Of a stretch of DNA of 64,000 nt, positions 851-58,726 are shown in pieces. Both the position numbers and the translations under genes were made by a program. The DNA is from Patescibacteria group bacterium (GTDB lineage: Bacteria > Patescibacteriota > Patescibacteriia > UBA9934 > GWF2-40-263). How positions within the stretch are numbered: position 1 is the stretch's first letter; each line of letters opens with the position of its first letter. A model generated the notes under the pieces. That model was not told the origin of the DNA and ran no database searches. It was given only the letters and a program-made list of their open reading frames with translations. The stretch covers positions 2,308 through 66,307 of the forward strand of contig JBBTSF010000064.1 in assembly GCA_038064815.1 (NCBI GenBank). The letters are read 5' to 3'.

Positions 851-1498
851 TCAGAGGGGCGGACAGGTGCCGTTGGACGGGCAGGGGTTTTGCCTGCAGC
901 GAGAGCAGGTGTCTGGGTAGAACTGGTAGAGAAGCGTGCTGATGGAAGCGACTCCTTGCAAGGTGACGTAACCCATCCACCAGGCGAAGAGATCCGCGAG
1001 CTCCTCGTGCACACCTTTCTCGTTTCCTTCCAGGACCGCGAACGTGAGCTCTCCTAGCTCTTCGGCGATATGGGCGAAGACGTTTGCTCGACCTTGTTTC
1101 TCATTCGATTTGCCGTAGATGCGTTTCAAGGCGCCTTGGAGCTTATCGATCGGAATTTCCGGCCCAGGGGTACCGAGGACAATGGGACTGCGGACGGCGT
1201 CCAGACAATGACAGTCTGCTTCACACCCACAGTAGACGCAGTGTCCAGGATACTTCATTGCGACGAGTGCCTCGACATCCAGCTCGAACAAGTTGGCCAG
1301 AGCGAAGATTCGAGCGCCGATCCCGGCAAGGGACCGCGGAATGTCCGGGCTGTTCTTGCGGACGCTTTCGGCCAGGCAGCTCAGCTCGATCTGTAGGCGA
1401 AGCAAGATCCGTTCGGGCGATGAACGCAGCCGATTCCGCTTGCCGTACAGAGCTCGGAACGTGTTTTGCCAGCCCTGAATGGTCCTTTCTTCGATCAT
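851..1498 (-). CDS. MazG-like nucleotide pyrophosphohydrolase domain protein with a Cys-rich C-terminal tail
   Basis: Two EExxE...EExxD-type segments (IELSCLAES; AEELGEL...HEELADLF) are typical of the all-alpha NTP-PPase fold. The start was placed at the ATG at 1498, which has GGAGGT six nt upstream. The track ORF runs further upstream from a TTG. Confidence 0.5.
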   Translation of the reverse strand: MIEERTIQGWQNTFRALYGKRNRLRSSPERILLRLQIELSCLAESVRKNSPDIPRSLAGIGARIFALANLFELDVEALVAMKYPGHCVYCGCEADCHCLDAVRSPIVLGTPGPEIPIDKLQGALKRIYGKSNEKQGRANVFAHIAEELGELTFAVLEGNEKGVHEELADLFAWWMGYVTLQGVASISTLLYQFYPDTCSRCRQNPCPSNGTCPPL

Positions 1499-1615
1499 GA
1501 CGACCTCCATGTCGCAGGGAAAATGGTAGACCAAACATTCCGTTTAGTCAACTCATCAGCTTTTTCTATACCCCGAATTATTGGCTTAATTAAGCCTAAA
1601 AATTGTTGACGGTCG

Positions 1616-1644
1616 TTGACAAAAGTCAAAAAATATGATATAGT
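1616..1644 (+). promoter_or_regulatory. sigma70-like promoter TTGACA-N17-TATAGT
   Basis: TTGACA at 1616-1621, a 17 nt spacer, and TATAGT at 1639-1644. The perfect 14 bp palindrome GGCTTAATTAAGCC lies just upstream at 1583-1596. Confidence 0.4.
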
Positions 1645-1650
1645 TTTGCT

Positions 1651-1777
1651 ATCAAGAATGATCATTTAAACAAAAGAAACTCTTGGGAGAGAGTTCGGAC
1701 AAATTTGAGCCAAATAGCGCTCAAAGGTCTATTATTGGATATTTTTCCTCCGAAATATTTAGTAATAGGCCTTTTTT
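1651..1777 (+). ncRNA. candidate small RNA of about 125 nt running from the promoter to an intrinsic terminator
   Basis: No ORF. The predicted TSS is about 1651. The 3' end is the hairpin GGTCTATTATTGG...AGTAATAGGCC followed by TTTTTT at 1725-1777. A CCUCC anti-SD-like motif sits in the terminal loop. The GC-rich islet begins immediately downstream. Confidence 0.3.
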
Positions 1778-1899
1778 GTTGGGTGGCACGGCTGCCGACC
1801 CAGCGAGGCTGAACGTACATAAGGAACGAGCGAAGTTTGGCTCGACCTGATGGACGGATCTGGAAATTCCACAGAAATTCGTGAAGGAAACAAAACCCG

Positions 1900-2373
1900 A
1901 TGCTTTACAAGACTGGTTCCGTGGTGTTCTCGGTTCTCGTTCTGGCTCTCAGCGGTGTGGTCGCCTACGGCGCCTACCACTGCCTGTTCGGCCAGTACGT
2001 GATGCCGCGGATTCCCCGGGCGAACTTCTCGGTGTTTTTCTGGATGTCCATGGGTATGGTCCTGTTCTTCCTCTGGCCGATGGCTGTGAGGATGATCGAT
2101 GACGCCTGGGGGCAGAGCGAGAAGAACATGAAGATCGCCGGGTGTGCGGAGGCGGCCGGCAGGGCCTTCTTCCACGCGTGGGTCATCGTCTTCGCGACGA
2201 CGACCTTCGTCGGCCTTCAGAGCGGACGGATCTTCGAAGGCGGCCCGGCCTACGTGGTCGTGACGGTCATCGGTGCTTTCCTCCTGATCGCGGCGAACTT
2301 CGCCCGAAACGGGTGGAAGTGGACGAGTCACGAGGACTCGTTCGGCCGCCGACTCGCCGTCGAAGTCCTCTAG
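1900..2373 (+). CDS. hypothetical polytopic membrane protein in the GC-rich islet
   Basis: 157 aa ORF with four to five hydrophobic helices, about 60% GC, and GGAAACAAAACCCG ATG upstream. No recognizable family. Confidence 0.55.
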   Translation: MLYKTGSVVFSVLVLALSGVVAYGAYHCLFGQYVMPRIPRANFSVFFWMSMGMVLFFLWPMAVRMIDDAWGQSEKNMKIAGCAEAAGRAFFHAWVIVFATTTFVGLQSGRIFEGGPAYVVVTVIGAFLLIAANFARNGWKWTSHEDSFGRRLAVEVL

Positions 2374-2375
2374 CC

Positions 2376-2473
2376 CACACGACGCCTTGAGAAAGCGTCG
2401 TCAACTCTCTTGCCGGACTTCTCACCCGGCGCTGACCTGAGTGTTTGAGGAAACTCGAATGCTGAGGTCAGGG
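2376..2473 (+). repeat. structured repeat element, copy 1: three consecutive hairpins
   Basis: Hairpins ACGACGC..GCGTCGT, GCCGG..CCGGC and CTGACCTGAG..TGAGGTCAG. A 46 nt core (2398-2443) is identical to 2854-2899. Confidence 0.8.
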
Positions 2474-2548
2474 AAACACAGAGCAGCTTTTGCTCACCCT
2501 GGGCCGTGTTCGGACATTCTGAGAGATTCGAGAGAGAGGCTTATTTCG

Positions 2549-2797
2549 ATGAAGATCATCAAGAAGATGGCGGCTGGGGTCGTTGTGTTCGCGCTCATGC
2601 TCGTTGGCATGATATGTGTGGGTGTGCTGATCGCTCTGCTCATCGCGGGGGTTGTCTGCATCAAGTCTCCGTTCGGAGTGCTGATGCTGGCCATCTTCTG
2701 CGGAAGCTGCTGGTTGCTGAGCAAGGCTGACCACGCGATCGAAAACTTCAATGAGCGGTTTAACGACTGGCTCTGGGAGACGTTCGACCTGAACTAG
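2549..2797 (+). CDS. small hydrophobic membrane protein of 82 aa
   Basis: MKIIKKMAAGVVVFALMLVGMICVGVLIALLIAGVVC... The start was chosen at the ATG preceded by GAGAGAGAGG. The track ORF 2441..2797 begins upstream, inside the repeat. Confidence 0.5.
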   Translation: MKIIKKMAAGVVVFALMLVGMICVGVLIALLIAGVVCIKSPFGVLMLAIFCGSCWLLSKADHAIENFNERFNDWLWETFDLN

Positions 2798-2828
2798 CCC
2801 GCCCACGTCATCGCTATTTCGACATGAT

Positions 2829-2936
2829 CCACACGACGCGCCTGAGAAACGCATCGTCAACTCTCTTGCCGGACTTCTCACCCGGCGCTGACCTGAGTGG
2901 TGGAAAATAGATTCCACCGTTGAGGTCAGAACGAAA
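2829..2936 (+). repeat. structured repeat element, copy 2
   Basis: Same three-hairpin architecture as copy 1, with compensatory variation in the first and third stems. It lies 32 nt after the stop of the preceding small gene. Confidence 0.8.
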
Positions 2937-2946
2937 TCTGGGTGCA

Positions 2947-3075
2947 ATGATGACCCAGAGAGGAGAAGGTTCTGTGACGACGAAAAAGAAGTGGATCATC
3001 GGTGTGGCTGTGGCATTCATTCTGTATGAGTCGTGGCTCATATGGCTGGCAATGACCGCTCCACCATGCCGATGA
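2947..3075 (+). CDS. candidate 42 aa hydrophobic peptide, below the ORF-track cutoff
   Basis: ATGATGACCCAGAGAGGAGAAGG... encodes MMTQRGEGSVTTKKKWIIGVAVAFILYESWLIWLAMTAPPCR. It starts 13 nt after the third hairpin of repeat copy 2. Hairpins at 3079-3104 and 3210-3243 follow. Confidence 0.3.
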   Translation: MMTQRGEGSVTTKKKWIIGVAVAFILYESWLIWLAMTAPPCR

Positions 3076-3276
3076 TCTAGGGGGTTTCTACGTTCGCCCC
3101 CAGTCCTTAAGTCACCAGGATGGTGATGGACGAACCGAGAAATCGGAAAAGAATGTTCCTTCACTGTGGAGGTCAACAACTTGTCGAGAACAAACGCGTT
3201 CCCGACAACTGGCCCTGCATACACGACGTTGCAGGGCCGTTCACCTGAGCGCTCGATCTACTCGAACCTTCAGGAA

Positions 3277-3312
3277 ACAAAACAACCGCCTCATCGAAGG
3301 CGGTTGTTTTGT
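3277..3312 (-). terminator. intrinsic terminator hairpin, bidirectional
   Basis: AACAACCGCC tcatcgaa GGCGGTTGTT flanked by A and T runs, directly after the stop of the DUF559 gene. Confidence 0.55.
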
Positions 3313-3665
3313 TATAGGCAGTTTACACGGATGGTTTCTAGAACACCTTGGATGTTTTCCGTGACTTCGGTGTTGGTGAAACGGAGGGTTTTTATGTTGG
3401 CTTGGTTTAGGAATTCGGTACGAGCTTGGTCGTAAATTTTTCCTTCCGGTGTTTCGTGAGAGTCGCCGTCGATCTCGATGCAAAGTTTTAGACTGGGGCA
3501 GTAGAAATCTAGGATGTAGGGGCCGACGCCTTGTTGACGTCTGAACTTATGTTCCAATTGATTGTTTCTGAGATGTCGCCAAAGGGTTTGTTCCGGTTTG
3601 GTGGCGTTGGAACGGAGTTCTCTGCGGCGGTCTGTTTGAAGGGGTCGGTTGAAAAGATCTCCCAT
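3312..3665 (-). CDS. DUF559 / Vsr-like very-short-patch-repair endonuclease domain protein
   Basis: The sequence contains LRFTNTEV. and IEIDGDSHETPEGKIYDQARTEFLNQ., the conserved core of DUF559 endonuclease-domain proteins. Confidence 0.75.
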   Translation of the reverse strand: MGDLFNRPLQTDRRRELRSNATKPEQTLWRHLRNNQLEHKFRRQQGVGPYILDFYCPSLKLCIEIDGDSHETPEGKIYDQARTEFLNQANIKTLRFTNTEVTENIQGVLETIRVNCL

Positions 3666-3691: not shown

Positions 3692-3729
3692 GCCCCCCTC
3701 CCGACCTCCCCCCTAGCAGGGGGAGGAGG
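3692..3729. repeat. GC-rich palindromic element, intergenic copy; a second related hairpin at 3751-3776
   Basis: GCCCCCCTCCCGACCTCCCCCCTAGCAGGGGGAGGAGG is an exact 38 nt reverse-complement match to 41521-41558. It contains the hairpin CCTCCCCC-ctagca-GGGGGAGG. The downstream CCCCCTCC-tgcca-GGGAGGGGG is a related hairpin. Confidence 0.85.
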
Positions 3730-3797
3730 CCGCATTCCGGAACGTGTAACCCCCCTCCTGCCAGGGAGGGGGTCTGGGGGTGGGCCCGACGAGGGCG

Positions 3798-11382: not shown

Positions 11383-11483
11383 ATACAAATTTTGCAACGC
11401 CTCTTGTCTTGACAGGAGGCTCTTTTTTTTCTACACTCTTGCGATTCCGAGCTGAGTCTTGCTCGGAAAAGGAGGGGGATGTA

Positions 11484-11909
11484 ATGAATCAAGTTGCGCG
11501 TGCCAGTGAGGGTCTACCCTGGTGGGTTGGAGTCGTCGCTGCCGTTATTTTGGTGGCTGTCGTGCTTGTCCTGCTGTGGCAACGCTGGATCAAGTCTACT
11601 CATGCTCGTTCTGACGCAGAGTTGCCGCGCCGGCAGGAGACGGGGATCGTACGATCCGTCGAGAAGCAGGACCCGATCAGCCCCGACACGCAGCTCTTCC
11701 TCATTCAGGTTCAGAAGGACAAAGACGGAGAGATCGTTCCATTTCGATGGGCCTTCCTCAATGAACAAGCGAAACCGAATGGATTTCCCAATCTGGATGA
11801 CCGCGTCGTGATCATCTACGTCTATCGGTTTCATGACACGCACGAGCAGTGGGTTCCCGACGCGTTCCACCTGATCGGCGAAGGGGAGCAAGAACATGCG
11901 GGTGAGTGA
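11484..11909 (+). CDS. hypothetical membrane-anchored protein, GC-rich
   Basis: ATG at 11484 with AAGGAGGGGG upstream. A single N-terminal TM helix. The 3' end overlaps the MOSC gene. Confidence 0.5.
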   Translation: MNQVARASEGLPWWVGVVAAVILVAVVLVLLWQRWIKSTHARSDAELPRRQETGIVRSVEKQDPISPDTQLFLIQVQKDKDGEIVPFRWAFLNEQAKPNGFPNLDDRVVIIYVYRFHDTHEQWVPDAFHLIGEGEQEHAGE

Positions 11910-12714
11910 ACTCTGGGTCTACCCCGTGAAGTCCTGCCGCGGCGTGCGCGTCGTGGAAGCAAAGGTGGGACCCACCGGCTTCCAGTACGATCGCGAGTGG
12001 ATGATCGTCGATGAGAAGGGGCTCTTCGTGAGTCAGCGGAAGGATCCGATCCTCGCAACGATTCGTCCGTACGTCAACGGGGATTGTCTGTTCTTATGTG
12101 TCGGTGAGAGTCGAGATCCGATTCTGGAAGTCCCGGTCAATGGGACGCATCAGGATCGCGGACAGAGGGTCACGATCCACACTGACGCGGAGGTCATGGG
12201 AAAAGATCAGGGTGACGAAGCAGCACGTGTTTTGAGCGGTGTCGTCGGTCGACGCGTCCGGCTCGTGAAGAAGGACTGGGCGTTCCCGCGATTCTCTCGT
12301 GGCGGAGAACGCGTCGAGACGGCCTTCTCGGACGGCTATCCGTTCCTTGTCACGACCACAGCGTCGCTCCACGAGCTCAATGAACGGCTCGATTCGCCCG
12401 TGCGGATGAATCGATTTCGACCGAACATCGTTGTCAATGGAACACGAGATCCGTTCGAAGAAGACCAGTGGGGTCACTTCACGGTCGGAAGTGTTACGTT
12501 CGCGGGAAAGACACGCTGCACGCGCTGCCCGATCGTGACTACCGACCAATTCACTGGTGCACGCTCAAGCGAGCCAACCAGAACGCTCCTTACGTATCGA
12601 GTTTTCCCGGGCAGCAAGCATCCCTGCTTCGGGCTCTACGCCGACCACTTCGAAGGCGACACCATTCGCGTCGGGGACGAGATCGTCGTCCACTCCACTC
12701 GTGCATCTTCCTGA
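11896..12714 (+). CDS. MOSC domain-containing protein (MOSC N-terminal beta-barrel plus MOSC domain)
   Basis: MRVSELWVYPVKSCRGVRV...FQYDREWMIVD...FRPNIVV......GKTRCTRCPI are conserved MOSC motifs. About 62% GC. AAGGGGAG lies upstream. Confidence 0.8.
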   Translation: MRVSELWVYPVKSCRGVRVVEAKVGPTGFQYDREWMIVDEKGLFVSQRKDPILATIRPYVNGDCLFLCVGESRDPILEVPVNGTHQDRGQRVTIHTDAEVMGKDQGDEAARVLSGVVGRRVRLVKKDWAFPRFSRGGERVETAFSDGYPFLVTTTASLHELNERLDSPVRMNRFRPNIVVNGTRDPFEEDQWGHFTVGSVTFAGKTRCTRCPIVTTDQFTGARSSEPTRTLLTYRVFPGSKHPCFGLYADHFEGDTIRVGDEIVVHSTRASS

Positions 12715-13907: not shown

Positions 13908-14585
13908 ATGGGAAGAATTTTTTGCCTCGGCGGAGGCGGATACGCGATTGATTTCGACGAGCAGCTCGATCGTTGGTGGCTCTCGCTTGCCGGCGCTCAG
14001 AGGCCGCGCATTGCGTTCATCCCAACCGCCACGGGCGACTCCCTTCACGTAATTGACGTCTTCACACGGAGCTTCAGAAACGAGGCTGCATCGATCGCAA
14101 CACTTCGTCTCTTCGAACGTGACGTGGTCGACCTCGACAGATTTCTCCGCGGCGTCGACCTGGTCTACGTGCATGGCGGTAACACAGCGAGCATGCTCGC
14201 GGTCTGGCGCGCACACGGCTTGGACGCGGCGCTCAAGCGCGCTTCTGCACGTGGACTCGTGATGGGTGGAAGCAGCGCCGGCGCCATCTGCTGGGGCCTG
14301 GGAGGAACGACCGATTCCTTCGGCGACATCCGCATTCTGCACGACGGTCTAGGACTGCTCAACGTCTCCATCTCGCCTCACCATGAGACGGAAGGACGAC
14401 GACCTCTGTTTGAACAGGCAATCAAGGAGGGAAGTCTCTGCCCGGGTTACGGAATCGACAACGGGGTCGGCCTGCTCTTTGAAGACGGAACGCTCAAGGA
14501 GTCTGTGAGTGCTCGTTCCTGGGCACGGGCACGTCTGACGGGCACCGACTTGCTCGAAGAGTGTCCCATCGAATTGCTCAGCTGA
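13908..14585 (+). CDS. peptidase S51 family protein (dipeptidase E / cyanophycinase-like), GC-rich
   Basis: RIAFIPTATGD...LVYVHGGNTASMLAVWRAHGLD...GLVMGGSSAGAICWG.. contains the S51 catalytic Ser context and the glutamine amidotransferase-like fold. About 63% GC. Confidence 0.7.
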   Translation: MGRIFCLGGGGYAIDFDEQLDRWWLSLAGAQRPRIAFIPTATGDSLHVIDVFTRSFRNEAASIATLRLFERDVVDLDRFLRGVDLVYVHGGNTASMLAVWRAHGLDAALKRASARGLVMGGSSAGAICWGLGGTTDSFGDIRILHDGLGLLNVSISPHHETEGRRPLFEQAIKEGSLCPGYGIDNGVGLLFEDGTLKESVSARSWARARLTGTDLLEECPIELLS

Positions 14586-14915: not shown

Positions 14916-15836
14916 ATGGGCTTTCTCTTTTCGTGGGACCAGATCCAGCGTGAGCGGATCCCTGGCCCGGAAGACTTCGACTGTGTGCGGTCGCAAGTGA
15001 CGGAAGCCCTCTACCCCCATCCAGGCGTAGTCGCGGCTTCCGTGTATGGCTCTGTCGTGCGCGGCGATCATAATTGGCGAAGCGATCTCGACCTCATTGT
15101 TATCTGCCGAAACGCAGAAGAGCTGTGTGTGCGTGGATCGGTTGTCGAACTCATGAGCGATGCGTTCAATCGCAGAGTCGTCATCGTCCCTCACGTCTAT
15201 ACGGTTTCGGAGGCGCGGTCCGGTCAGCATCCGTTGGGCCCCTCCTACCGTTTTACGCTCGCACGGCTTGCGAATAACGGTGTCGCCAGTGGTCGGGTAC
15301 ATCAGTACCTGGTTTGCAGGGACAACGATATTCGCGTAGAGATGTGCAAGCGGATTCTGTCTGCTCGTCGATGTGTGGCAATCGCCCACGCGCAGTTCTG
15401 GGAGATGGTTCCCAATGGCGCGCATGACGACATGGAGCGATGGCTCGCTCAACGCGAGGTGCAGGGAGGATATCGCTTCCGCATCTTTCACTTGTACGTC
15501 AACATCGCCCGCTGGCTGCTGTGGTGGCATCACTGCAGCCTCATTAATGATGGCAAACGTGCAGTTTGCGAAGCGGTGATCAACAATGGTCTCTTTCGCC
15601 TCGTTCAGAGAGATTTCCAAATCCTCGTCGAGGCGGATAGGGCTTACGATGAGCTTCTCGATGACGCCCTCTCAGGCGCGGTGACGCGTGCCGAGTATCT
15701 TCAGAAGGTGCTTGAGCTGACAGCGATGGTTTTCACCGTTTCCATCGGGCTACTCCGCCGCGCGTCGCGCCTCATCACCGCACAATCGGTCCAATCCTCC
15801 AGGTTGACTACGTCCGCACGGCGAGCTGTCGCCTGA
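14916..15836 (+). CDS. nucleotidyltransferase-domain protein, ANT(3'')/ANT(9)-like: a pol-beta NTase fold plus a helical C-terminal domain, GC-rich
   Basis: VYGSVVRGDHNWRSDLDLIV matches the G-S...S-D-x-D nucleotidyltransferase motif of aminoglycoside adenylyltransferases. A roughly 180 aa alpha-helical C-terminal region follows. GGAGGA lies upstream. About 60% GC. Confidence 0.65.
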   Translation: MGFLFSWDQIQRERIPGPEDFDCVRSQVTEALYPHPGVVAASVYGSVVRGDHNWRSDLDLIVICRNAEELCVRGSVVELMSDAFNRRVVIVPHVYTVSEARSGQHPLGPSYRFTLARLANNGVASGRVHQYLVCRDNDIRVEMCKRILSARRCVAIAHAQFWEMVPNGAHDDMERWLAQREVQGGYRFRIFHLYVNIARWLLWWHHCSLINDGKRAVCEAVINNGLFRLVQRDFQILVEADRAYDELLDDALSGAVTRAEYLQKVLELTAMVFTVSIGLLRRASRLITAQSVQSSRLTTSARRAVA

Positions 15837-31567: not shown

Positions 31568-32263
31568 ATGCCTAAAGAAGAACTGGAGGATTTAGAGCAG
31601 ACGCTTGGTGTCACGTTCAACAACAAAGACACGTTACGACAAGCGCTTGTTCACCGATCCTATCTCAACGAACATCCCGACTTTCCGCTCGGTCACAACG
31701 AACGATTGGAATTTTTGGGCGACGCGGTTCTCGAACTTGTTGTCACAGAACACCTGTACGACAACTACGAAAACCCAGAAGGAGAACTCACCAACTGGCG
31801 CGCGGCTCTGGTGAACGCCGAAATGCTCGCCGAGCTTTGTGCAAAGTTGGAGATCGAACCGTATCTGCACCTGTCCCGCGGGGAAGCAAAAGATAAAGAT
31901 TCCAAAGCGCGAAAGTACATTCTCGCGAACGCGTTTGAAGCATTGATTGGAGCAATCTATATTGATGGCCAATGGGAACCCTCAAAGAAATTTATCGAAG
32001 AGCGCGTCCTGTGCGAACTGCCACGTATTCTGAAGCAGCGTTTGTATATCGATCCGAAGAGTCGATTCCAAGAAGCGGCGCAGGAACACGCCGGCGTCAC
32101 GCCTTCCTACAAAGTCCTCTCCGAAGAAGGTCCAGATCACGCCAAACAGTTTCAAGTCGGTGTGTATCTCGCAAAAGAACAGATAGCGATCGGAATCGGC
32201 ATGTCAAAACATGAAGCTCAAGTCGTTGCTGCAGAAGCGGCATTGAAAGAAAAAGGTTGGTAA
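31568..32263 (+). CDS. rnc: ribonuclease III
   Basis: RNase III signature ERLEFLGDAVLELVV and the dsRBD at the C-terminus. Confidence 0.9.
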   Translation: MPKEELEDLEQTLGVTFNNKDTLRQALVHRSYLNEHPDFPLGHNERLEFLGDAVLELVVTEHLYDNYENPEGELTNWRAALVNAEMLAELCAKLEIEPYLHLSRGEAKDKDSKARKYILANAFEALIGAIYIDGQWEPSKKFIEERVLCELPRILKQRLYIDPKSRFQEAAQEHAGVTPSYKVLSEEGPDHAKQFQVGVYLAKEQIAIGIGMSKHEAQVVAAEAALKEKGW

Positions 32264-36305: not shown

Positions 36306-37298
36306 GTGAAAGTTGTGTTCATCAACGGCGATGGCATTGGGCCGGAGGTGATGAACATCACCCGCCGCGTCCTGGATGTCTTGGCGAGCGACCAGATCCA
36401 GTGGATCGAAGCCCATGCCGGGCGGCGGTGTCACGAGGCAACAGGAGAGTCGCTGCCGGCGGAAACGCTCGCACTCCTGCGCGAGCATCGTGTAGGCATC
36501 AAAGGCCCGACCGAAACGCCGAGTGGCGGAGGGTTCACGAGCGCCAACGTTCGTCTCCGTCAGGAGCTTGATCTGTTCGTAGGATTGCGTCCCGCGGTAT
36601 CGATGGGCTTGCCGGGCACGCGCGACAACGTCAACCTCGTGACGTTTCGCGAGAACACGGAAGGGCTCTACGCCTGCTCGGAGGAACAGACCGGTTTCAC
36701 GGTCGTCCTGACCGCGCGGTTCACGGCGGAGGGTATGCGGCGTCTGGCTGCCTCAGCATTCGTCTACGCCCTCGAGCACGGATACGATCACGTCACGCTT
36801 GTGACCAAAGAGAACATCCACAAGGTCTGGGGCCGGCTCTACCATGATGCGTTCAACACGGTCGCACAGATGCAGAACTTCCGCGGAATCCGCGTTGACC
36901 ACATGCTGGTCGATGCGATGTGTATGTCGCTCGTGAGGAATCCCAGCAAGTGGGGCGTCATCGTCACCGAGAATATGTTCGGGGACATTATCTCGGATCT
37001 GTGTGCGGGTCTCGTCGGCGGTCTGGGTGTCACGCCCGGCGCCAACATCGGCGCGCAGGTCGCGCTCTTCGAAGCTGTTCACGGCTCCGCTCCCGACATC
37101 GCGGGCATGGGCATCGCCAACCCGGCCGGCCTCCTGCTCTCGGGTGGGCTGCTCCTCGACCATCTCGGTCTGCGCGGATTGGGGAACCGCCTGCGCAACG
37201 CCATCGCGCAGGCCCTGCGGGCTGGCGAGTGGACGCGCGACATCGGCGGCGAGCTCAACACCTACCAGTTCACCCAGGCCGTCCTCGCCCGGGTGTAA
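36306..37298 (+). CDS. isocitrate / isopropylmalate dehydrogenase family protein, GC-rich with a GTG start
   Basis: MKVVFINGDGIGPEV...GIKGP.ETP...N(V/L)RL...DLFVGLRP...NTEG.Y.....DHMLVDAMCM is a conserved beta-decarboxylating dehydrogenase core. AAGGAGG lies 8 nt upstream of the GTG. About 65% GC. Confidence 0.75.
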   Translation: MKVVFINGDGIGPEVMNITRRVLDVLASDQIQWIEAHAGRRCHEATGESLPAETLALLREHRVGIKGPTETPSGGGFTSANVRLRQELDLFVGLRPAVSMGLPGTRDNVNLVTFRENTEGLYACSEEQTGFTVVLTARFTAEGMRRLAASAFVYALEHGYDHVTLVTKENIHKVWGRLYHDAFNTVAQMQNFRGIRVDHMLVDAMCMSLVRNPSKWGVIVTENMFGDIISDLCAGLVGGLGVTPGANIGAQVALFEAVHGSAPDIAGMGIANPAGLLLSGGLLLDHLGLRGLGNRLRNAIAQALRAGEWTRDIGGELNTYQFTQAVLARV

Positions 37299-37314
37299 AC
37301 CAGTCACGTCACGA

Positions 37315-37338
37315 CCCACTCTCACAGGTGGGATTTTT
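37315..37338 (+). terminator. intrinsic terminator after the dehydrogenase gene
   Basis: CCCACTCTCACAGGTGGG followed by ATTTTTAT. Confidence 0.55.
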
Positions 37339-37381
37339 ATTTGTAGGGATTTGGGGTCAGACCCCTGACAGTTTGAGTCAA

Positions 37382-37405
37382 TAAAAAAACACCCGACTTG
37401 GGTGT
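37382..37405 (-). terminator. intrinsic terminator for the minus-strand gene ending at 37415
   Basis: On the minus strand: CACACCCAAGTCGGGTGTG followed by TTTTTTT. Confidence 0.5.
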
Positions 37406-37414
37406 GAGACCGAA

Positions 37415-37876
37415 CTAGCTCTTCACGAGGTACAGCTGTGCTCGCTTGAGTTGCGAGCGTTCCAAGATCGTGAGAACGGCCCGTGTGATTCCGGTGGCTT
37501 CATCTGAACTGAAGGTGATGTGGAAGCCGACACGGATGACTCCATCAATTTCGACCGCGAACTGTGAGGACTGATCGACCCGGCTTTCTACCTTCAGATC
37601 CGCGATGAACCGGAGGCGACGCAGCAGAGCTCGGAGGAGTTTTCCTGGAGGCCGCATGATCAACTGCCACTGGCCGCCGGCCTTCTGTCTGACTTCGCAC
37701 GTCCTGTTTGGAATCCCTTCCAGGACGACTTCCGTTGCGCCCCGGCTCGTCACGTTTGCAAGTGTCACGTCAATGATCTGGATGACCGGGATCAACAAGT
37801 AATCCTCGATTCCCGGGTCGTCCATCGGATCGGACGCGATCGGTGGAGGACGCAACTGCACGATGGGGATTTCCAT
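37415..37876 (-). CDS. hypothetical protein of 153 aa, GC-rich
   Basis: Clean ATG start. No recognizable family. A weak PilZ-like RxxxR...DG.I.VG pattern is too weak to assert. Confidence 0.45.
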   Translation of the reverse strand: MEIPIVQLRPPPIASDPMDDPGIEDYLLIPVIQIIDVTLANVTSRGATEVVLEGIPNRTCEVRQKAGGQWQLIMRPPGKLLRALLRRLRFIADLKVESRVDQSSQFAVEIDGVIRVGFHITFSSDEATGITRAVLTILERSQLKRAQLYLVKS

Positions 37877-39307: not shown

Positions 39308-40873
39308 TTATCTCGCGTATTCAATCACGCGTGTTTCACGAATGACGGTGACTTTAATTTCTCCTGGGTAACTGAGTTCCGCTTCAATTTTGTTTGCGAT
39401 ATCTTTGGCGAGTTTGAAGGCGGTGAGGTCGTCGATTTTTTGTGGATGAATGAAGACGCGGATTTCACGACCCGCTTGAATGGCATACGTTTTCTCCACG
39501 CCCTCAAACGCGTTCGCGGTTTTTTCCAACTCTTCCATGCGTTGCACAAATTGTTCGAGCGATTGTTTGCGTGCGCCTGGACGTGAACCGGAAATTGCGT
39601 CCGCGGCTTTCACGATGGCACCCTCAATTGTACGCGGACGATCTTCGTGATGAGCAATCGACTGGTAACAAATCTCTTCTGGGAATCCAAACTTCTTCAT
39701 GATGTTGTAGCCGATTTCTGGATGGGCGCCTTGCATGTCGTGATCGACCGCTTTTCCAATATCGTGGAACAGTCCACCTTTTTTACAGATGAATACATCG
39801 GCTCCAAGTTCCTCCGCGATCATTCCGGCAATCGTTCCAACCTCAAGCGAGTGTTGAAGGGCATTTTGTCCGTAGCTTGTACGAAACTTCATGCGCCCGA
39901 GAATCGAGGTGAGTTTTGGATCAACAGAGGAAACAGGAATTCCAAGTTGATACAACGCTTCTTCTCCCGCTTTGCGTAAGTCTTGTGCGAGCGATTTTTT
40001 TGCTTCCTGAACCGCTTCTTCGATACGAGCTGGCTGAATACGACCATCCTTGATAAGTGCTTCCAAAGAGCGTTTCGCGACCTGGCGACGAATAGGGGAG
40101 AAGCCACTGATCGTGATGGCGTTTGGGGTATCATCCACGATAATTTCGGTTCCGGTGAGAAGTTCGATTGCTTTGATGTTGCGTCCCTCTTTTCCGATAA
40201 TGCGTCCTTTCATTTCATCGTTTGGAAGTTCTACAGACGTGGTGGTGGTATCGGCGCAGACAGAGGAGGCATAGCGAGTCAGGGCAAGGGAAAGCACTTT
40301 GCGTGATTTCACCTCGAGCTCTTCTTCGGTAACTTCTTCCATTTTGCGCAGACGCGTCATGAGGGCTTCTTGTGAATCCTCTTGGACTTGTTGCATCAAT
40401 CGTTCCTCGGCTTGCTCGTGTGTGAGTTTTGCAACCTCTTGTAGCTTCACGATCTGTTCTTCTTTTAATTGTTCGATCGAGGATCGTACACTCTCGATTT
40501 CTTTTGTTTTTTCCTCTAACTTCGTTTTTTTGTCTTCGACTTCGATCAGCTTCTCATCAAACATGCTTTCTCGCTTTTCCAAGCGTCGTTGCTGATCTTG
40601 AATATCACGACGTCGTGTTTGTTCCTCACGCTTGGCTTCTTCGATAAGGTTGATGGATTTTTCTTTTGCCTCAAGGAGAAGTTCTTGTTGACTGGTCTTT
40701 GCTTGTTGAAGAATCTCTTGCTGCTTTGCCTTTGCTTCACTGAGCATCTGCTCGGCTTTTGCTTCGGCATGATCGGCGGATTTTTTTCCAACCGATTGGC
40801 GATAATAATATCCACCCGCTCCTCCTATTGCGAGCGCAATCAGTGTGAGAACGATTGTTTGGAGAATTAACAT
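39308..40873 (-). CDS. rny: ribonuclease Y
   Basis: An N-terminal TM helix, coiled coil, KH domain (GKEGRNIKAIELLTG), and HD domain (HSLEV..IAGMIAEELG...LFHDIGKA). The start is the ATG at 40873. Confidence 0.9.
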   Translation of the reverse strand: MLILQTIVLTLIALAIGGAGGYYYRQSVGKKSADHAEAKAEQMLSEAKAKQQEILQQAKTSQQELLLEAKEKSINLIEEAKREEQTRRRDIQDQQRRLEKRESMFDEKLIEVEDKKTKLEEKTKEIESVRSSIEQLKEEQIVKLQEVAKLTHEQAEERLMQQVQEDSQEALMTRLRKMEEVTEEELEVKSRKVLSLALTRYASSVCADTTTTSVELPNDEMKGRIIGKEGRNIKAIELLTGTEIIVDDTPNAITISGFSPIRRQVAKRSLEALIKDGRIQPARIEEAVQEAKKSLAQDLRKAGEEALYQLGIPVSSVDPKLTSILGRMKFRTSYGQNALQHSLEVGTIAGMIAEELGADVFICKKGGLFHDIGKAVDHDMQGAHPEIGYNIMKKFGFPEEICYQSIAHHEDRPRTIEGAIVKAADAISGSRPGARKQSLEQFVQRMEELEKTANAFEGVEKTYAIQAGREIRVFIHPQKIDDLTAFKLAKDIANKIEAELSYPGEIKVTVIRETRVIEYAR

Positions 40874-41093
40874 AAAACAGTCTTCTATTTTCCAAAGAAG
40901 CATCGCGAGCGGTTTTATGGACTTTACTTACGACAACAATGAGCCCCTTTTATGGGAGGGGATGCGGAAATTCGAGGATGAAAAGCCGATAATTGAAGGC
41001 ATAGAAAGGCCAAATGACGCCACGGGTGTTGCTTCTGTTGGAACGTTCATTTGATTAAACACGCATTGAAGGTATCAAAAAACCCCCGTGCTG

Positions 41094-41825
41094 TCAAAGA
41101 CGCGCAAGGAGGCTTTCCGCTGAAACAAGCAAATTTTTCCAATCTTCGGTTTTAAATTTCTCCAGGGAGACAGACTCGGAAATCGTGAATGGGCCGATGG
41201 AAGTGCGACGCAATTCCTGTACATATCCTCCCGTTCCCAGCGCCTGCCCAAGGTCGCGCGCGATTGCACGGATGTAGGTGCCTGTAGAACAGTGGATGAT
41301 GAGTGGGAGGAGGGTTTGTGAAGAGCCGGCTTCAATGGCGTGGATAGGTCCTATTTTAATGGAGTGGATGGTTACGGTTCGCGGCTTCGCCTCCAGCGGT
41401 TTTCCCTCACGCGCCGCCTCATACATTTTCTTTCCACCAATCTTGATCGCCGAATAAGCCGGTGGAATCTGTGAAATCTCGCCAGTGAATTGCTTAAGCG
41501 CATCCGCGATTGCGTCATGTCCTCCTCCCCCTGCTAGGGGGGAGGTCGGGAGGGGGGCACGTGGCGTAATCGTCCCCATCCGATCATCCGTATCCGAACT
41601 CGCTCCAAGCACAAACACCGCCTCATACGTCTTATCGAGTCCTACTAACTTAGGAAACTCTCGTGTCGCTTCACGTCCAACCCCAATAATCAAAAGCCCG
41701 CTCGCAAACGGATCAAGTGTTCCCGCATGACCCACGCGTTTTTCTCCCGTGATACGCCGAATTTTATCGACGATATCGTGAGAAGTGGGGCCGATTGGCT
41801 TGTCGATCAGGAGGAAGCCGGACAT
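41094..41825 (-). CDS. truB: tRNA pseudouridine(55) synthase TruB, carrying an in-frame copy of the GC-rich palindromic element
   Basis: Canonical GHAGTLDPFASGLL catalytic Asp motif and QIPPAYSAIKIGGKKMYE. The extra Pro/Gly segment TPRAPLPTSPLAGGGG is encoded by the 38 nt repeat. Confidence 0.9.
   Translation of the reverse strand: MSGFLLIDKPIGPTSHDIVDKIRRITGEKRVGHAGTLDPFASGLLIIGVGREATREFPKLVGLDKTYEAVFVLGASSDTDDRMGTITPRAPLPTSPLAGGGGHDAIADALKQFTGEISQIPPAYSAIKIGGKKMYEAAREGKPLEAKPRTVTIHSIKIGPIHAIEAGSSQTLLPLIIHCSTGTYIRAIARDLGQALGTGGYVQELRRTSIGPFTISESVSLEKFKTEDWKNLLVSAESLLARL
41521..41558. repeat. GC-rich palindromic element, intragenic copy inside truB, inverted relative to 3692-3729
   Basis: Exact 38 nt reverse-complement identity, in frame in the truB coding sequence. 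Local GC is far above the surrounding gene. Confidence 0.85.
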
Positions 41826-46546: not shown

Positions 46547-47455
46547 TCAGGGCGAAGGCTGAGCCTCCGCGGCAGGTGCGGTGAGTTGGTGGGGCCACGC
46601 GTGGAGCATGGCCGTTTCGAGGGCCGCAACCTCGGTGCCATTCATGGCGAGATCATATCGTCCGCCATTGAGACGGCCGACTCGGACGATCACGGGAACG
46701 AATCCCGTGTCGTTGTCGACGTTGAATCGCCGCACCTTGTCGAAGAAGCGACGGCGTCTGGCAGAGGTCTGTGCGACCTCGATGTCGGAAGGCCGTTCGG
46801 CGAGCACTAACGCGTCTAGTCCTGTTCCCGAGACTCCCGTCTTGATGTCGAGTGCGAGTTCAACGGGACCATAGCGGACGAAGAGGTCGACCCCGTCGTC
46901 GACATCCTCGTGGATGCTGGGAAGGAACACTTCGCAGTCGCGGATGCTACAGAACGCCATGATCGTCCGGGCGCATGCGGCGGCTCCGACGAAGGCGTTT
47001 TCCCACTCCATCCGATCATACCCGATGTGTCTTCCCAGCTCGAAGAGCATCTGGTGTTGAGCTTCCACGACCGACGCGAGTACGAGGCTCAAACGTTGCT
47101 GGATCATGGCACCCAACACGGGAATGCATCGACCAAATCGGCGGAGTTGAATTCGCTGATTGGCGATGTATGCCTGCAACCGGTGCAGTGCGACCACTTC
47201 CTGCAGCAACCGGTCGATCACATGCCGCACCGCGAACGGCAACAGCATCTCGTCCACGATCATCATGAAGTGACCGACGTACACTCGGGCGATCGAAGTC
47301 GCGTCGAGAATCGTCGCCCACTTCCACGGAATGACCGTCTCCGCAATGACCCGAAGGTCGTTGGTGAAGAGATATCCCGGGAGCACATGCAATGCCCCCG
47401 CCCGTCGAACCTGCTGATGGGTGAGGACGAATGCTTCGAGCATGGCACGCTCCAT
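46547..47455 (-). CDS. hypothetical protein of 302 aa, GC-rich, no recognizable family
   Basis: ATG at 47455 (MERAMLEAF). The AT-rich 117 nt upstream of it, which the track includes in the ORF, looks like a promoter region. About 60% GC. The antisense ORF 46910..47911 is composition noise. Confidence 0.45.
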   Translation of the reverse strand: MERAMLEAFVLTHQQVRRAGALHVLPGYLFTNDLRVIAETVIPWKWATILDATSIARVYVGHFMMIVDEMLLPFAVRHVIDRLLQEVVALHRLQAYIANQRIQLRRFGRCIPVLGAMIQQRLSLVLASVVEAQHQMLFELGRHIGYDRMEWENAFVGAAACARTIMAFCSIRDCEVFLPSIHEDVDDGVDLFVRYGPVELALDIKTGVSGTGLDALVLAERPSDIEVAQTSARRRRFFDKVRRFNVDNDTGFVPVIVRVGRLNGGRYDLAMNGTEVAALETAMLHAWPHQLTAPAAEAQPSP

Positions 47456-47577
47456 TCCGACAAGATCGAGGTAAGTGGATATAAATCTACCGAAGGAACA
47501 GACGCAGAGAATAATGGAAAAACCTCGTTTTGTCAAGGTTGTCCGCGTTTGATAAGATCCATGCAATATCAATTTTT

Positions 47578-55869: not shown

Positions 55870-55958
55870 CAAGCGTCTGTTTGTTCAAACGTCTGAGGAC
55901 TATCGAGAAAAAATGGGTGAGGTGGCAGCGCATTCGTTGCGTTGCCACCTCACGAGAA

Positions 55959-56777
55959 TCACACGTGTCGGCCGACCCACCAGGTCGACCGGGCGATCAT
56001 GCCCAGTTCGCCGGTGTGGCCCTCGTAGTACGGGTTGACTTCCGTTGCGAGTCCTTGGGACTCCATGAAAATTCCAGCCCGACGGAAGTGTTCCTGCACC
56101 TGCCCGCGGTTGAGAATGGCCTTCTGATAGGTCCCTTCCCAAGCGAGTTCGCTCGTCGATCGATCGGTCACCCGAACGTCGATGGACATGATGCCCGAGT
56201 GTTCGTCGAACCGAGGGGCTCGATCGTCGAAGACCGGACGACCGTTGAGTTCAGCCTCCCACCGCATGGGGCTCCGTGTACGGCATCGGTCGAGGTAACC
56301 CTCACCGATATAGTCCATGACGAATACCCCCGTGTGGGAAACCGGACGAACCATGCCGTAGGTGACCCGGGCCAAGAGCTCCGGATCAACGATGTCGCCG
56401 AACGAGTTACCGAGCAGGATGCCCGCGCCAAGTCGTTCGTCGCTCTTCCATGTAGCAAGGTCACCGACGTGGAGTTCCACCCGCGGATCGTCGCAATGAG
56501 CCCGACGGGCTTTGTCGACGCACTTGGGGGAGAGATCCACCCCGACGATTCGTCGCACACCGCGATTGAGCAGGGAAGCGATGTGCCGACCCGTGCCGAA
56601 GCATGGGAGGAACACCGACCTTGGAACCCTGCCGATCAGCCGCAGAACGGTGTCGACTTCGGCGTCTGCGAGCGCGCGATCGTCATGAACGTCGCGATCG
56701 AGCTCTTCCATGACGTCGTAGTGACGCGCGATGTCGAACTGGGCTGGATGCTGGATCTGCGATGAGAGAGGCGCCAT
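55959..56777 (-). CDS. class I SAM-dependent methyltransferase, GC-rich
   Basis: Motif I VFLPCFGTGRHIASLL and motif II RIVGVDLS. The start is the ATG at 56777, which overlaps the TAA of the upstream gene as TAATG. The 306-codon N-terminal extension in the track ORF is Arg/Pro-rich GC-frame noise. Confidence 0.7.
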   Translation of the reverse strand: MAPLSSQIQHPAQFDIARHYDVMEELDRDVHDDRALADAEVDTVLRLIGRVPRSVFLPCFGTGRHIASLLNRGVRRIVGVDLSPKCVDKARRAHCDDPRVELHVGDLATWKSDERLGAGILLGNSFGDIVDPELLARVTYGMVRPVSHTGVFVMDYIGEGYLDRCRTRSPMRWEAELNGRPVFDDRAPRFDEHSGIMSIDVRVTDRSTSELAWEGTYQKAILNRGQVQEHFRRAGIFMESQGLATEVNPYYEGHTGELGMIARSTWWVGRHV

Positions 56778-58633
56778 TACAGCTCGTCCGTGAAGACGAC
56801 CGGGCCCTCTTCGGCATCGTCCGCGCCGTGGATGCGGAAGCTCTTGCTTCGCAACGTCATCGTCGCGCCAGCGAGCTCGACCAACGAACCGGCCTTCCCG
56901 TGGAACAGGAAGAACGGGGTCAGGCGAGTGCGCGCGGCACGATCGATGGCGACCCGGCCCATCGCGTCGCGGTAGGCAACCGTGTAGCGGGCCGAGGCGA
57001 TGATGTGCTGAGCGACCACGGGGTGCGGCAGAGCCGCGACATCCTTGAGATGCGTGACCCACGCCGTCTGATTCTGGGCCTGGGGCCCGAGCACGATGCT
57101 GCGAGATCCCCAGGACTGGTTCTTGCCGTCCCATGCGGCGAACTTGGTGAGGTGAAGGTCGCGCTGGTTGGCGACCTCGGACTCCCAGGTTGAGCCGTTG
57201 ACGACCTGCGTCTGCGCGACGCAGTTGTGCAGGGTCGTGAGGGTTGCCTGGCCACCGAGGCTGACGATGCGGTCCATGACGGTACGATCCCAGAGGGCGG
57301 CCATCAGGCTCTTGCTCTCGAGGAAATACCACAGGGGGTTCATGACGTACGCGCCCTGTTCGTGCCAACGCTTCAGCAGTTCGAGTGCGTTGGTGTTGAC
57401 CAGGTTGTCCAGGTATCCGAAGCGGTAGATCACCGTCTCCGGCCCGAGGTCGAGGGGCATCCCCTCGTCGCTTCCGTGGACGAACTCGAGGAACCCGAGG
57501 CTCCGGAGTCGACCGAGGAAGTCGCGGTTCCACGCGGCGCGCGCGGTTGCGGAGATGTCCTTGTGGGGCTCCCACGCCGTCTGCACGCGCTCGTGGATCT
57601 CCGCGAGCGGCCTGTCGAACCAGAGTTCGGCATCCACGCCCGCGTCGCGCAGCGCCTTGATGAAGCAGGCCTGCTCCCACGTGTACTCGGCCCACTCGTT
57701 GGTGGCGAGCACAATGTACCGTCGCCCCTTGAGAAGCCGCAGGTAGCCGTTGAGCATGCTCAGCGGCAGGCCGTAGCCGAGCTCCATGGCGTGCGCCATG
57801 CCCTGACCGCCGGGGCAGCTCTCGAACTCCGTGATGACCGGGCGCAGCTTCTTGGTGACGGGATCGAGGACCACCACGATGTCGGGGCGCATCACGCCCA
57901 CCGTGTCTCCGTGGAGAAGGGCGGGGATGCGATCCGGCTTGCGGTAGCTGAGCAGATTGCGCGGTGTCTCGTAGTCGCGGTGGGTCTCGTAAACGGCCTG
58001 GAAGGCCACGCCGAGAGCCTGACCAAGCTCACCGAGCTCCGTCACGAAGTATGTCGGCAGAGCGAACGGATCGATCATCTGGCGCCACGTGACGCCGGTG
58101 CCACCCTTGTAGCCGACGCCAGTCGCCGTCATGATCCGCCGCGTCTCTTCGACGCTGGGCTCGACGGGCTTGCCGATGCGGTCAGCGAACTTGCTGACGC
58201 CCGCGGCCTGGTCGTATCCGTCGACGAGCTCGGGTTCGACCAGGAGAAGGTCTGCGAGGTTCGGGGTGACGCCACCGATCTTGGGGATGTTCTCGATGAC
58301 AACCCACTTGCGCGGCTGACCCTTGCGAACTCCTTCCTCCGCCCGCCACTTGAACCCGATGATGGCGTACCGCTCCTCGAGCGCATTCAGAATTGGACCG
58401 TTCTTCGGCCACTCCGTGCTCTGCTCGGGGACGGTCACACCGTCCAGCTCGACCTTGCCGGCGAGCACTTCGTCTCGCCACTTCTTGGTCGTTCCATGTG
58501 GGGTGCCATTGGGCCCTGGCTTGAAGCCGTGCTTCACCCGCACTGCGAGAATCGCATCGGGCTTCGCCTTGGCTGTTGTTCCGCCCTCCCAGCTTCCGCT
58601 GGTGGTCGGACGATCTTCGGTGAGCAATGTCAT
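56777..58633 (-). CDS. hypothetical 618 aa protein with an ATP-grasp-like motif, GC-rich, translationally coupled to the methyltransferase
   Basis: ATG at 58633 with GGAGGG nine nt upstream. PVITEFESCPGGQGMAHAMELGYGL resembles the ATP-grasp E-x-N-x-x-P-G segment of D-Ala-D-Ala ligase, here E-x-E-x-x-P-G. Non-repetitive protein. About 65% GC. Confidence 0.5.
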   Translation of the reverse strand: MTLLTEDRPTTSGSWEGGTTAKAKPDAILAVRVKHGFKPGPNGTPHGTTKKWRDEVLAGKVELDGVTVPEQSTEWPKNGPILNALEERYAIIGFKWRAEEGVRKGQPRKWVVIENIPKIGGVTPNLADLLLVEPELVDGYDQAAGVSKFADRIGKPVEPSVEETRRIMTATGVGYKGGTGVTWRQMIDPFALPTYFVTELGELGQALGVAFQAVYETHRDYETPRNLLSYRKPDRIPALLHGDTVGVMRPDIVVVLDPVTKKLRPVITEFESCPGGQGMAHAMELGYGLPLSMLNGYLRLLKGRRYIVLATNEWAEYTWEQACFIKALRDAGVDAELWFDRPLAEIHERVQTAWEPHKDISATARAAWNRDFLGRLRSLGFLEFVHGSDEGMPLDLGPETVIYRFGYLDNLVNTNALELLKRWHEQGAYVMNPLWYFLESKSLMAALWDRTVMDRIVSLGGQATLTTLHNCVAQTQVVNGSTWESEVANQRDLHLTKFAAWDGKNQSWGSRSIVLGPQAQNQTAWVTHLKDVAALPHPVVAQHIIASARYTVAYRDAMGRVAIDRAARTRLTPFFLFHGKAGSLVELAGATMTLRSKSFRIHGADDAEEGPVVFTDEL

Positions 58634-58726
58634 CTTCGCTATCCCTCCATCACTGGTTGCGTTCTGGTCATTCCTCCAACAAGCATTTCTGCTCGCAGAG
58701 GGAAAACAGGACACAACCCTTAAACA

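Follow-up and report, generated by a model that had tools for sequence, protein, structure and literature searches.

A conserved multi-hairpin element repeated between small membrane-protein genes at one locus of a groundwater Patescibacteria genome

Introduction

What is a highly structured repeat doing between three small genes for hydrophobic proteins, at a single locus of an otherwise ordinary genome? The question is raised by a GC-rich islet in a 64-kb stretch of DNA (the ‘window’; the whole stretch that was analysed) belonging to a member of the Patescibacteria, in which two copies of a multi-hairpin element follow the first and the second of three tandem open reading frames (ORFs). An original prediction, made from the same stretch, had picked out the islet and its repeat, and had offered as candidate roles a cis-regulatory leader or riboswitch, a 3′ stabiliser, or the antisense target of a type I toxin-antitoxin-like system. 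To our knowledge, the genomes of Patescibacteria are small and contain very few repeats, the group is thought to be poor in mobile elements, and its regulatory RNAs are almost uncharted. We report here that the element is real, conserved, structured and undescribed, and from its features we infer a function; our tentative reading is that of a cis-acting, sense-strand RNA module for the processing or stability of a transcript.

The window derives from a metagenome-assembled genome of an uncultivated member of the group (also known as the candidate phyla radiation, CPR) from Hainich groundwater (ENA ERZ1292640, contig Hain_H43_02um_R1_100; NCBI locus tags AAB431_02820, 02825 and 02830). A second assembly (ERZ1292638, NODE_76) matches the first 8 kb of the window with no differences; as two independent assemblies are identical over this distance, the arrangement of genes and elements is no artefact of assembly. 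A Logan contig stops within the first copy of the repeat, as expected since the repeat exceeds the assembly k-mer. The window itself is ordinary core genome with a GC content of ~47%, encoding S16, TrmD, SMC, ClpP, FtsH, GyrA, IF-2 and several aminoacyl-tRNA synthetases, as well as RNase III and RNase Y. No integrase, transposase, phage gene or other recombinase was found among its ORFs or the precomputed Pfam matches of the flank, and no RAYT-like gene in the window.

Results

Both copies of the element are oriented like the ORFs, the first starting 1 nt after the stop codon of ORF1 and the second 31 nt after that of ORF2 (Table 1); the distance to the next start is 77 nt for ORF2 and 18-45 nt for ORF3. 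The identical 46-nt core originally claimed for the two copies is indeed present, at 2398-2443 and 2854-2899, with 0 matches of this kind expected in shuffles, and the surrounding 66-nt ungapped repeat (88% identical; copy-to-copy spacing 456 nt) is the largest direct repeat of the window. The length first given, ~70 nt, proves too short: the element extends over ~100 nt, or ~125 nt when a fourth hairpin (H4) is counted.

From the full copies known, two in the window and one in a second genome (see below), we built a covariance model; run on the window with filters off, it returns the two copies at 116-117 bits, plus a weak match at 3174-3284 (11.7 bits, E about 0.15). Searches by pattern, by this model without filters and for repeats found no further copy in the 64 kb plus 2.7 kb of flank; within the DNA available there is therefore no dispersed family of the REP/BOX type, which the original prediction had named as one outcome that would speak against it. 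The weak match falls on a possible degenerate third copy after ORF3, which is without statistical support (alignment z at most 1.8). A ‘copy 0’ upstream of ORF1, spotted by eye, was rejected, its local alignment being no better than those of shuffles (z at most 1.8).

Each copy folds into a series of separate hairpins: H1, of 7-8 bp; H2, formed by GCCGG/CCGGC with a 9-nt loop; H3, of 17 bp, arranged as 7 + 10 bp around a G.G mismatch; and H4, found in both copies with different sequence and separated from H3 in copy 2 by AACGAAAT. On the plus strand the fold of copy 1 reaches -46.8 kcal/mol (z -5.1 against shuffles) and that of copy 2 -41.5 kcal/mol (z -4.7), whereas the minus-strand fold of copy 1 has a z of only -1.7. 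The H1 and H2 hairpins fold in both copies, as had been described, with the qualification that H1 of copy 2 contains one C.A mismatch. Of the third stem it had been said that the pairing is kept while the loop varies; the pairing is kept, but the variation reaches beyond the loop, as the inner stem of H3 also differs between the window copies, with compensatory changes that retain it. Among the three full copies H2 is invariant, whilst H3 shows three pairs changed on both sides yet still paired, plus several G-C to G-U changes. Seven G.U pairs are possible only on plus-strand RNA, six of them in H3 (three in copy 1, two in copy 2, one in the second genome) and one in the loop-loop contact of the second genome; for H3 of copy 1 the difference between strands amounts to -25.6 kcal/mol on plus against -12.4 on minus. 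Because only three full copies in two genomes are available, the covariation carries no statistical weight.

A further feature, missed in the original prediction, concerns the loops. The H1 loop UGAGAA is perfectly complementary over 6 nt to the H2 loop UUCUCA in both window copies, and in the second genome, where the H1 loop reads UGAGAG, the A-to-G change keeps the loop-loop pairing as G.U. When the loops were shuffled with their composition preserved, complementarity of 6 nt arose in 34, 8 and 2 of 5000 trials for the three full copies. H1 and H2 are thus predicted to form a ‘kissing-loop’ or pseudoknot domain.

The second genome, which is the sole genome available for comparison, is a further Patescibacteria assembly (GCA_041643055.1, contig JBGGHI010005348.1; hereafter L019), located through a homologue (P0004, 66% identical) of the MazG-like gene that lies divergently beside the islet, and with the same neighbours S16, TrmD and KH. 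Its order is likewise a divergent promoter and leader, a terminator, a hairpin, a GC-rich ORF, a partial element and a full element, the contig ending 120 nt past the latter. The full element scores 109 bits with the covariance model and its position in the locus is equivalent to that in the window. It is 76-80% identical to the window copies over aligned columns (z 8.6 and 5.5 against shuffles), the leader 88% (z 13). At fourfold-degenerate sites the flanking orthologues reach only 41% (MazG-like) and 48% (S16) identity, so that the pace of evolution in the non-coding blocks is far below that of neutral sites. This homologous copy at the same locus, together with the three compensated pairs of H3 and the wobble pairs of the plus strand, bears out the claim of a conserved structured element. 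The sequence GGGAAACA stands 3′ of H3 both in copy 1 and in L019, and similarity between these two extends through H4, whereas copy 2 diverges directly after H3. The partial element, upstream of the full one (L019 186-262, minus strand), has H1 and, as a remnant of the H2 loop, TTCTCAC, followed by a different hairpin, GCGCGATtgtccgATCGCGC.

What lies between leader and element is not conserved in the same manner. The L019 ORF encodes 145 amino acids (aa) with four hydrophobic helices, has a GC content at third codon positions (GC3) of 0.94 and is itself a singleton cluster. No similarity to ORF1 was detectable (BLASTP E 2.3; protein shuffle z at most 1.3), the nucleotide score was no better than that of codon shuffles, and blastn gave no match between window positions 1812 and 2411; an apparent z of 4.5 obtained with a permissive aligner was rejected as an artefact of codon periodicity. 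Judging from these two sequences, what the element goes with is the locus and the presence of ‘some small GC-rich membrane ORF’, not one protein family. The first ORFs may nonetheless have diverged in situ under loose constraint, since both encode ~150-aa four-helix proteins and the GC3 of the MazG-like gene is raised in both genomes.

Table 1. Positions of the features discussed, in window coordinates
Feature	Position	Strand	Remarks
MazG-like gene	851-1498	-	GC 58%, GC3 0.69; divergent from islet
Sigma-70-type promoter, near-consensus	1616-1644	+	TTGACA-17-TG-TATAGT; 11/12 consensus positions, extended -10; faces islet; kept in L019
AT-rich leader RNA, ~130 nt	1651-1778	+	Ends in terminator 1725-1778: 20-bp hairpin + T6
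Conserved hairpin right after leader terminator	1781-1801	+	GGGTGGCAcggcTGCCgACCC; L019 form GGATGGCgcgtTGCCgATCC, one G-C to A-U double change
12-mer AGGAAACAAAAC, first copy	1885-1896	+	Includes ORF1 Shine-Dalgarno; exact repeat at far end of array
ORF1	1900-2373	+	157 aa; about four transmembrane helices; GRAVY 0.66; orphan
Element copy 1	2375-2471 (to 2495 with H4)	+	H1 2379-2401, H2 2412-2430, H3 2432-2471, then GGGAAACA, H4 2481-2495
Loop-loop complementarity, copy 1	2388-2393 with 2419-2424	+	UGAGAA with UUCUCA
ORF2	2549-2797	+	82 aa; two transmembrane segments, acidic C-terminal tail; GRAVY 1.15; orphan
Element copy 2	2829-2929 (to 2958 with H4)	+	H1 2833-2857, H2 2868-2886, H3 2888-2929, H4 2938-2958
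Loop-loop complementarity, copy 2	2843-2848 with 2875-2880	+	UGAGAA with UUCUCA
ORF3	2947-3075	+	42 aa from ATG; one transmembrane helix; GRAVY 0.39; coding status uncertain
Possible degenerate third copy	3211-3274	+	Hairpin GGCCCTGCA...TGCAGGGCC with ACACGACG in loop; second hairpin CCTGAG...CTTCAGG
12-mer AGGAAACAAAAC, second copy	3272-3283	+	Leads into array-ending hairpin
16-bp perfect hairpin, bidirectional, terminator-like	3276-3313	+	Ends array; U-run in own arm
RNase III	31568-32263		
RNase Y	39308-40903		

The three plus-strand ORFs of the islet are present as first described and all are hydrophobic by their grand average of hydropathy (GRAVY; Table 1). GC at the three codon positions is 0.56/0.44/0.86 for ORF1 and 0.51/0.33/0.82 for ORF2. 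These are taken as the coding frames because their GC peaks at position 3, in the antisense ORFs at position 1; on this ground the minus-strand ORFs of 190, 159 and 136 aa annotated in one assembly were rejected. Conservation of the small ORFs, whose absence the original prediction had also named as counting against it, is not seen: ORF1 matched only itself among 5.8e9 clustered proteins and in a HMMER pass over 1.84e9 representatives, ORF2 likewise among the 5.8e9 proteins, neither gave a meaningful match to Pfam, PHROGs or NCBIfam, and the L019 ORF at the orthologous position is unrelated. A single-sequence AlphaFold2 model of ORF1 is helical with a predicted local distance difference test score (pLDDT) of 57 and was not used for fold search. 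ORF3 is the doubtful member of the set; its GC3 is 0.58, no gene caller called it and its ATG lies within the loop of H4, an alternative start being GTG 2974 behind a GGAG box, which would give 33 aa.

Upstream of ORF1 stands a promoter that faces the islet and whose -35 box overlaps the promoter from which the MazG-like gene is divergently read. Together, the -35 boxes of this promoter pair form a palindrome, TTGACAAAAGTCAA (1606-1629); it could also be an operator, and L019 keeps it with one change. The promoter is followed by the leader, whose terminator hairpin contains CCUCC in its loop and shows one compensatory U-A to G-C change in the stem relative to L019; the leader alone has no meaningful match in Rfam 15, even at E up to 10. 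The terminator had been taken for that of a host gene, ending at 1777. It ends no host gene, since the MazG-like gene upstream is read from the opposite strand, but closes a conserved promoter-leader unit that points into the islet. The block 1616-1801 may represent a small RNA gene in its own right, or else serve to attenuate the islet. A consensus scan, made where the promoter rules for this phylum are not established, found no further plus-strand promoter-like site in 1650-3300; as no other such site precedes 3300, the islet ORFs would most simply be transcribed through read-through of the leader terminator. Two long-range pairings were tried and dropped because L019 does not keep them: that of the 3′ arm of the leader hairpin, GAGAGAGUU, with the element linker AACUCUCUU, whose complementarity is missing there, and that of 1707-1722 with 1828-1843.

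At its ends the array is enclosed as a whole, rather than element by element, by the 12-nt direct repeat AGGAAACAAAAC; sharing of a 12-mer between the two boundary regions was met in 12 of 5000 shuffles (p about 0.002). The closing hairpin at 3276-3313 is common to the convergent DUF559 gene, and it closes a chain of ~7 hairpins that extends downstream of ORF3 (3076-3320, z -7.6) and takes in the possible third copy. Terminator-like plus-strand sites were called only at 1725-1778 and 3276-3313, and none at H1-H4.

Beyond the window and L019, exact matches to three to four patterns were sought in the GTDB species representatives, JGI metagenomes and IMG/VR, scans that diverged copies would escape; for the element they gave chance matches only, in GC-rich coding DNA as judged by reading the flanks, and the leader pattern had no match in IMG/VR. 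Nor did 1600-3320 match the phage and plasmid collections by blastn. In Rfam 15 the window yields only tRNAs at the gathering threshold; the scan of the region that had been proposed gave no match over the element, the best sub-threshold scores being 8-15 bits against cutoffs of 39-80, with nothing meaningful at E up to 10.

Comparison with described repeat families gave the following. The attC sites of integrons lie next to the gene for the tyrosine recombinase IntI, have RYYYAAC and GTTRRRY cores at their two ends, 57-141 bp apart, and fold into one imperfect hairpin with extrahelical bases (PMC5027507). The central spacer of that hairpin is unpaired, and its terminal structure varies. A regular-expression search of 1780-3330 on both strands found no paired attC cores, and just one self-overlapping GTTTAAC inside ORF2; the element forms three separate hairpins on both strands, not one imperfect hairpin, and H3 alone measures 40-42 nt. 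A CRISPR array was likewise rejected: CRISPRs have 23-50-nt repeats and 25-75-nt spacers, whereas here the repeat is ~100 nt, the spacing 456 nt and the ‘spacers’ hold complete ORFs with ribosome-binding sites.

In base composition the islet does stand out, GC rising from 37% at 1501-1800 to 61-65% at 2001-2400, as had been noted; it does not stand alone, however, since the MazG-like gene is also GC-rich and genes of high GC3 occur elsewhere in the window. Most host genes have a GC3 of 0.41-0.53 (about 0.47). Genes with values of 0.61-0.84 are dispersed at 11409-12714, 13908-14585, 14916-15836, 36306-37876, 46547-47572 and 55881-58714, a set that includes MOSC, peptidase S51, Pol-beta nucleotidyltransferase and isocitrate/isopropylmalate dehydrogenase, together with three ORFs without a Pfam match; the pattern suggests that high-GC donors contributed genes repeatedly, or that some local process raises GC.

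The MazG-like gene has a GC3 of 0.61 in its L019 orthologue. We rejected it as part of the system, a 27%-identical relative being found in a dNTP-metabolism cluster (thymidylate, dCTP-deaminase) and the relatives at 58% and 51% identity in different synteny. The encoded MazG/PRA-PH-like protein has unusual Cys-rich stretches, CVYCGCEADCHC and, at the C-terminus, CSRCRQNPCPSNGTCPP. On the other side of the islet, the DUF559 endonuclease-like gene (3312-3665, minus strand; Pfam E 2.7e-31) was left uncalled in the annotation of one ENA assembly. An exact 38-nt repeat, GCCCCCCTCCCGACCTCCCCCCTAGCAGGGGGAGGAGG, occurs twice in the window, at 3693-3730 (plus) in the DUF559/SMC spacer, within a ~100-nt C-tract/G-tract hairpin (3692-3790; z -3.2 and -4.8), and at 41521-41558 (minus) within the truB reading frame. 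In L019 a GIY-YIG endonuclease gene (3236-3562, minus strand) sits between trmD and the KH-domain gene, where the window contig has none.

Discussion

Of the readings that we have considered, the one we prefer, with somewhat less than an even chance of being right, is that the repeat is a cis-acting module of the sense-strand RNA, concerned with processing or stability of the transcript. We favour it because it fits the way the copies are oriented and placed, shortly behind stop codons, as well as the wobble pairs and the pairing between loops. The islet would then be one transcription unit running from the promoter through leader and terminator to ORF1, module, ORF2, module, ORF3 and the final hairpin, with read-through past the leader terminator giving a single polycistronic RNA. 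In that RNA each module would serve as the 3′ untranslated region of, or the intercistronic spacer following, a small membrane-protein gene, folding into a compact domain in which H1 and H2 are joined by the 6-bp kissing loop and followed by the long H3 and the variable H4. H3 and H4 may be where an RNase that is double-strand-specific or guided by hairpins cuts, and may also block exonucleases; both RNase III and RNase Y, candidate nucleases, are encoded in this genome. The cut transcript would yield separately stable mRNAs, and the sequence-conserved H1-H2 domain might offer a recognition surface for a trans-acting factor. Transcription of the element, its processing and its effect on expression are accordingly to be read as proposals of this model.

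Several observations weigh against such a module. A plain exonuclease barrier would have no need of 46 identical bases. The H1 mismatches of copy 2 and L019 are C.A on the plus strand and would be U.G on the minus strand, and H3 of L019 folds equally well on either strand. Just three full copies in two genomes are known; read-through of the leader terminator would be required; and conserved spacers between unrelated, foreign-looking ORFs would be explained more directly by an exchange of cassettes.

That last thought leads to the principal rival, which treats the element as DNA: the copies would be recombination sites marking the cassette boundaries of an integron-like array, with small promoterless genes exchanged behind a fixed promoter and leader, H3 (conserved outer stem, central mismatch, variable inner stem and loop) acting as the folded single-strand site and GGAAACA as its core. 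We think this unlikely, if less so than the remaining alternatives. Much in the array recalls an integron. The ORFs share one orientation, lack promoters of their own, are unrelated to one another and mostly orphans, and each has one folded element 3′, behind a strong fixed promoter; the sites are more alike than the genes, part of the hairpin being conserved and part variable; and the unit sizes (~340-590 bp) fall within the range of integron cassettes. The content varies between relatives on a kept platform (in one comparison genome), L019 retaining promoter, leader and element with an unrelated ORF between, and its tandem of partial and full element resembles a scar or an empty unit. The GC3 of ORF1, ORF2 and the L019 ORF (0.82-0.94) contrasts with that of the host, the 12-mer encloses the array, the recurrence of GGGAAACA after H3 in copy 1 and L019 is suggestive, and the folding of H3 in copy 1 strongly favours one strand. 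Set against this, the 64 kb and the extra flank contain no IntI or any other recombinase or transposase, neither strand has an RYYYAAC/GTTRRRY core, and the three to four separate hairpins, with H3 below the attC size range, are built unlike an attC site; a terminator intervenes between promoter and first gene, and there are only three units. There is also no consistent breakpoint, because the similarity of copy 1 and L019 passes GGAAACA into H4 whereas copy 2 diverges right after H3. The ~150-aa four-helix proteins encoded first in both genomes fit divergence in situ; high GC3 need not mean recent import, as the MazG-like gene keeps a raised GC3 in both; and both the complementary loops and the G.U pairs of the sense strand suggest an RNA. 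A novel kind of gene-capture platform, in which foreign GC-rich cassettes with multi-hairpin sites are held behind the fixed promoter and leader and the recombinase is encoded elsewhere, strikes us as slightly more doubtful again.

If the element does act as RNA, it might instead respond to a ligand or protein, copy 1 controlling ORF2 and copy 2 controlling ORF3. Small membrane proteins, as encoded downstream here, are common riboswitch cargo, the copies lie upstream of the two ORFs, and the kissing-loop architecture is compact with conserved loop sequences; the three PyrR-binding attenuators of the Bacillus subtilis pyr operon show how similar structured RNAs can recur in successive spacers. 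In the present case, however, no U-tract follows H3 or H4, no ribosome-binding-site-sequestering helix or terminator/antiterminator alternative is predicted, no binding protein is known, the distance and sequence from element to start codon are wholly different between the copies, a different leader precedes ORF1, and Rfam gives no match even with lax filters, so that the riboswitch or leader role first suggested now seems improbable. A little more improbable is a functionless local or selfish repeat, REP- or MITE-like, or a leftover of tandem duplication kept similar by gene conversion. The nearly identical copies 456 bp apart could stem from recent duplication or conversion, L019 has its partial extra copy, and assemblies break at the repeat. 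REP/BIME, ERIC, BOX and Correia elements are, like ours, stable hairpins in operon spacers oriented as the genes, and can shield the mRNA upstream or be cut by RNase III; they occur, however, in tens to hundreds of copies per genome, whereas the present element, longer, modular and with its predicted kissing loop, occurs at a single locus in 64 kb, with its synteny kept in a second genome. Its conservation there, with neutral sites close to saturation, the compensatory changes in H3 and preserved loop-loop pairing, the lack of dispersed copies in 64 kb and flank and (by pattern scan) in the databases, and the absence of any transposase or RAYT-like gene in the window all count against a repeat of this kind. 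A type I toxin-antitoxin-like arrangement, with the hydrophobic peptides as toxins and the element as antisense RNA target or template, we hold to be very unlikely. As in hok/sok, there are small hydrophobic peptides and heavily folded RNA, here at 3076-3320; ORF3, of 33-42 aa with a lysine-rich N-terminus and a single helix, is toxin-like (its coding status being weak), and H4 of copy 1 resembles a weak minus-strand terminator. Unlike hok/sok, no antisense gene was found, the same consensus scan giving no minus-strand promoter in 1650-3400; ORF1 and ORF2 exceed the usual toxin size (< about 60 aa); the elements occupy the spaces between ORFs and cover neither start codons nor 5′ untranslated regions; and no Rfam antitoxin family reaches threshold, OrzO-P scoring best with 17.9 bits where the cutoff is 60. 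The least probable of all is that the element belongs to an undescribed class of self-cleaving ribozymes and severs the operon transcript in its intergenic stretches. Known bacterial ribozymes are often found in such a setting, and a multi-helix fold in which two loops make a tertiary contact, repeated from one intergenic stretch of the operon to the next, would suit one; the element matches no Rfam ribozyme class, shows no conspicuous conserved unpaired core apart from the linkers, and is known from three copies.

Whichever of these is correct, the only sizeable direct repeat in the window is a structured element kept by selection at one locus in two genomes, and it stands between orphan genes that are unrelated to one another and look foreign in their codon usage. 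Leader and element provide two sequence handles, as covariance models, for finding further loci. Should the element be a module for RNA processing or stability, as we prefer to think, it would be a motif new among RNAs, with a kissing loop in its predicted fold and a role in expressing the small membrane proteins of an episymbiont; should the units be exchangeable cassettes, they would represent a mechanism of gene capture in this phylum, an analogue of the integron with unrelated sites and enzyme.

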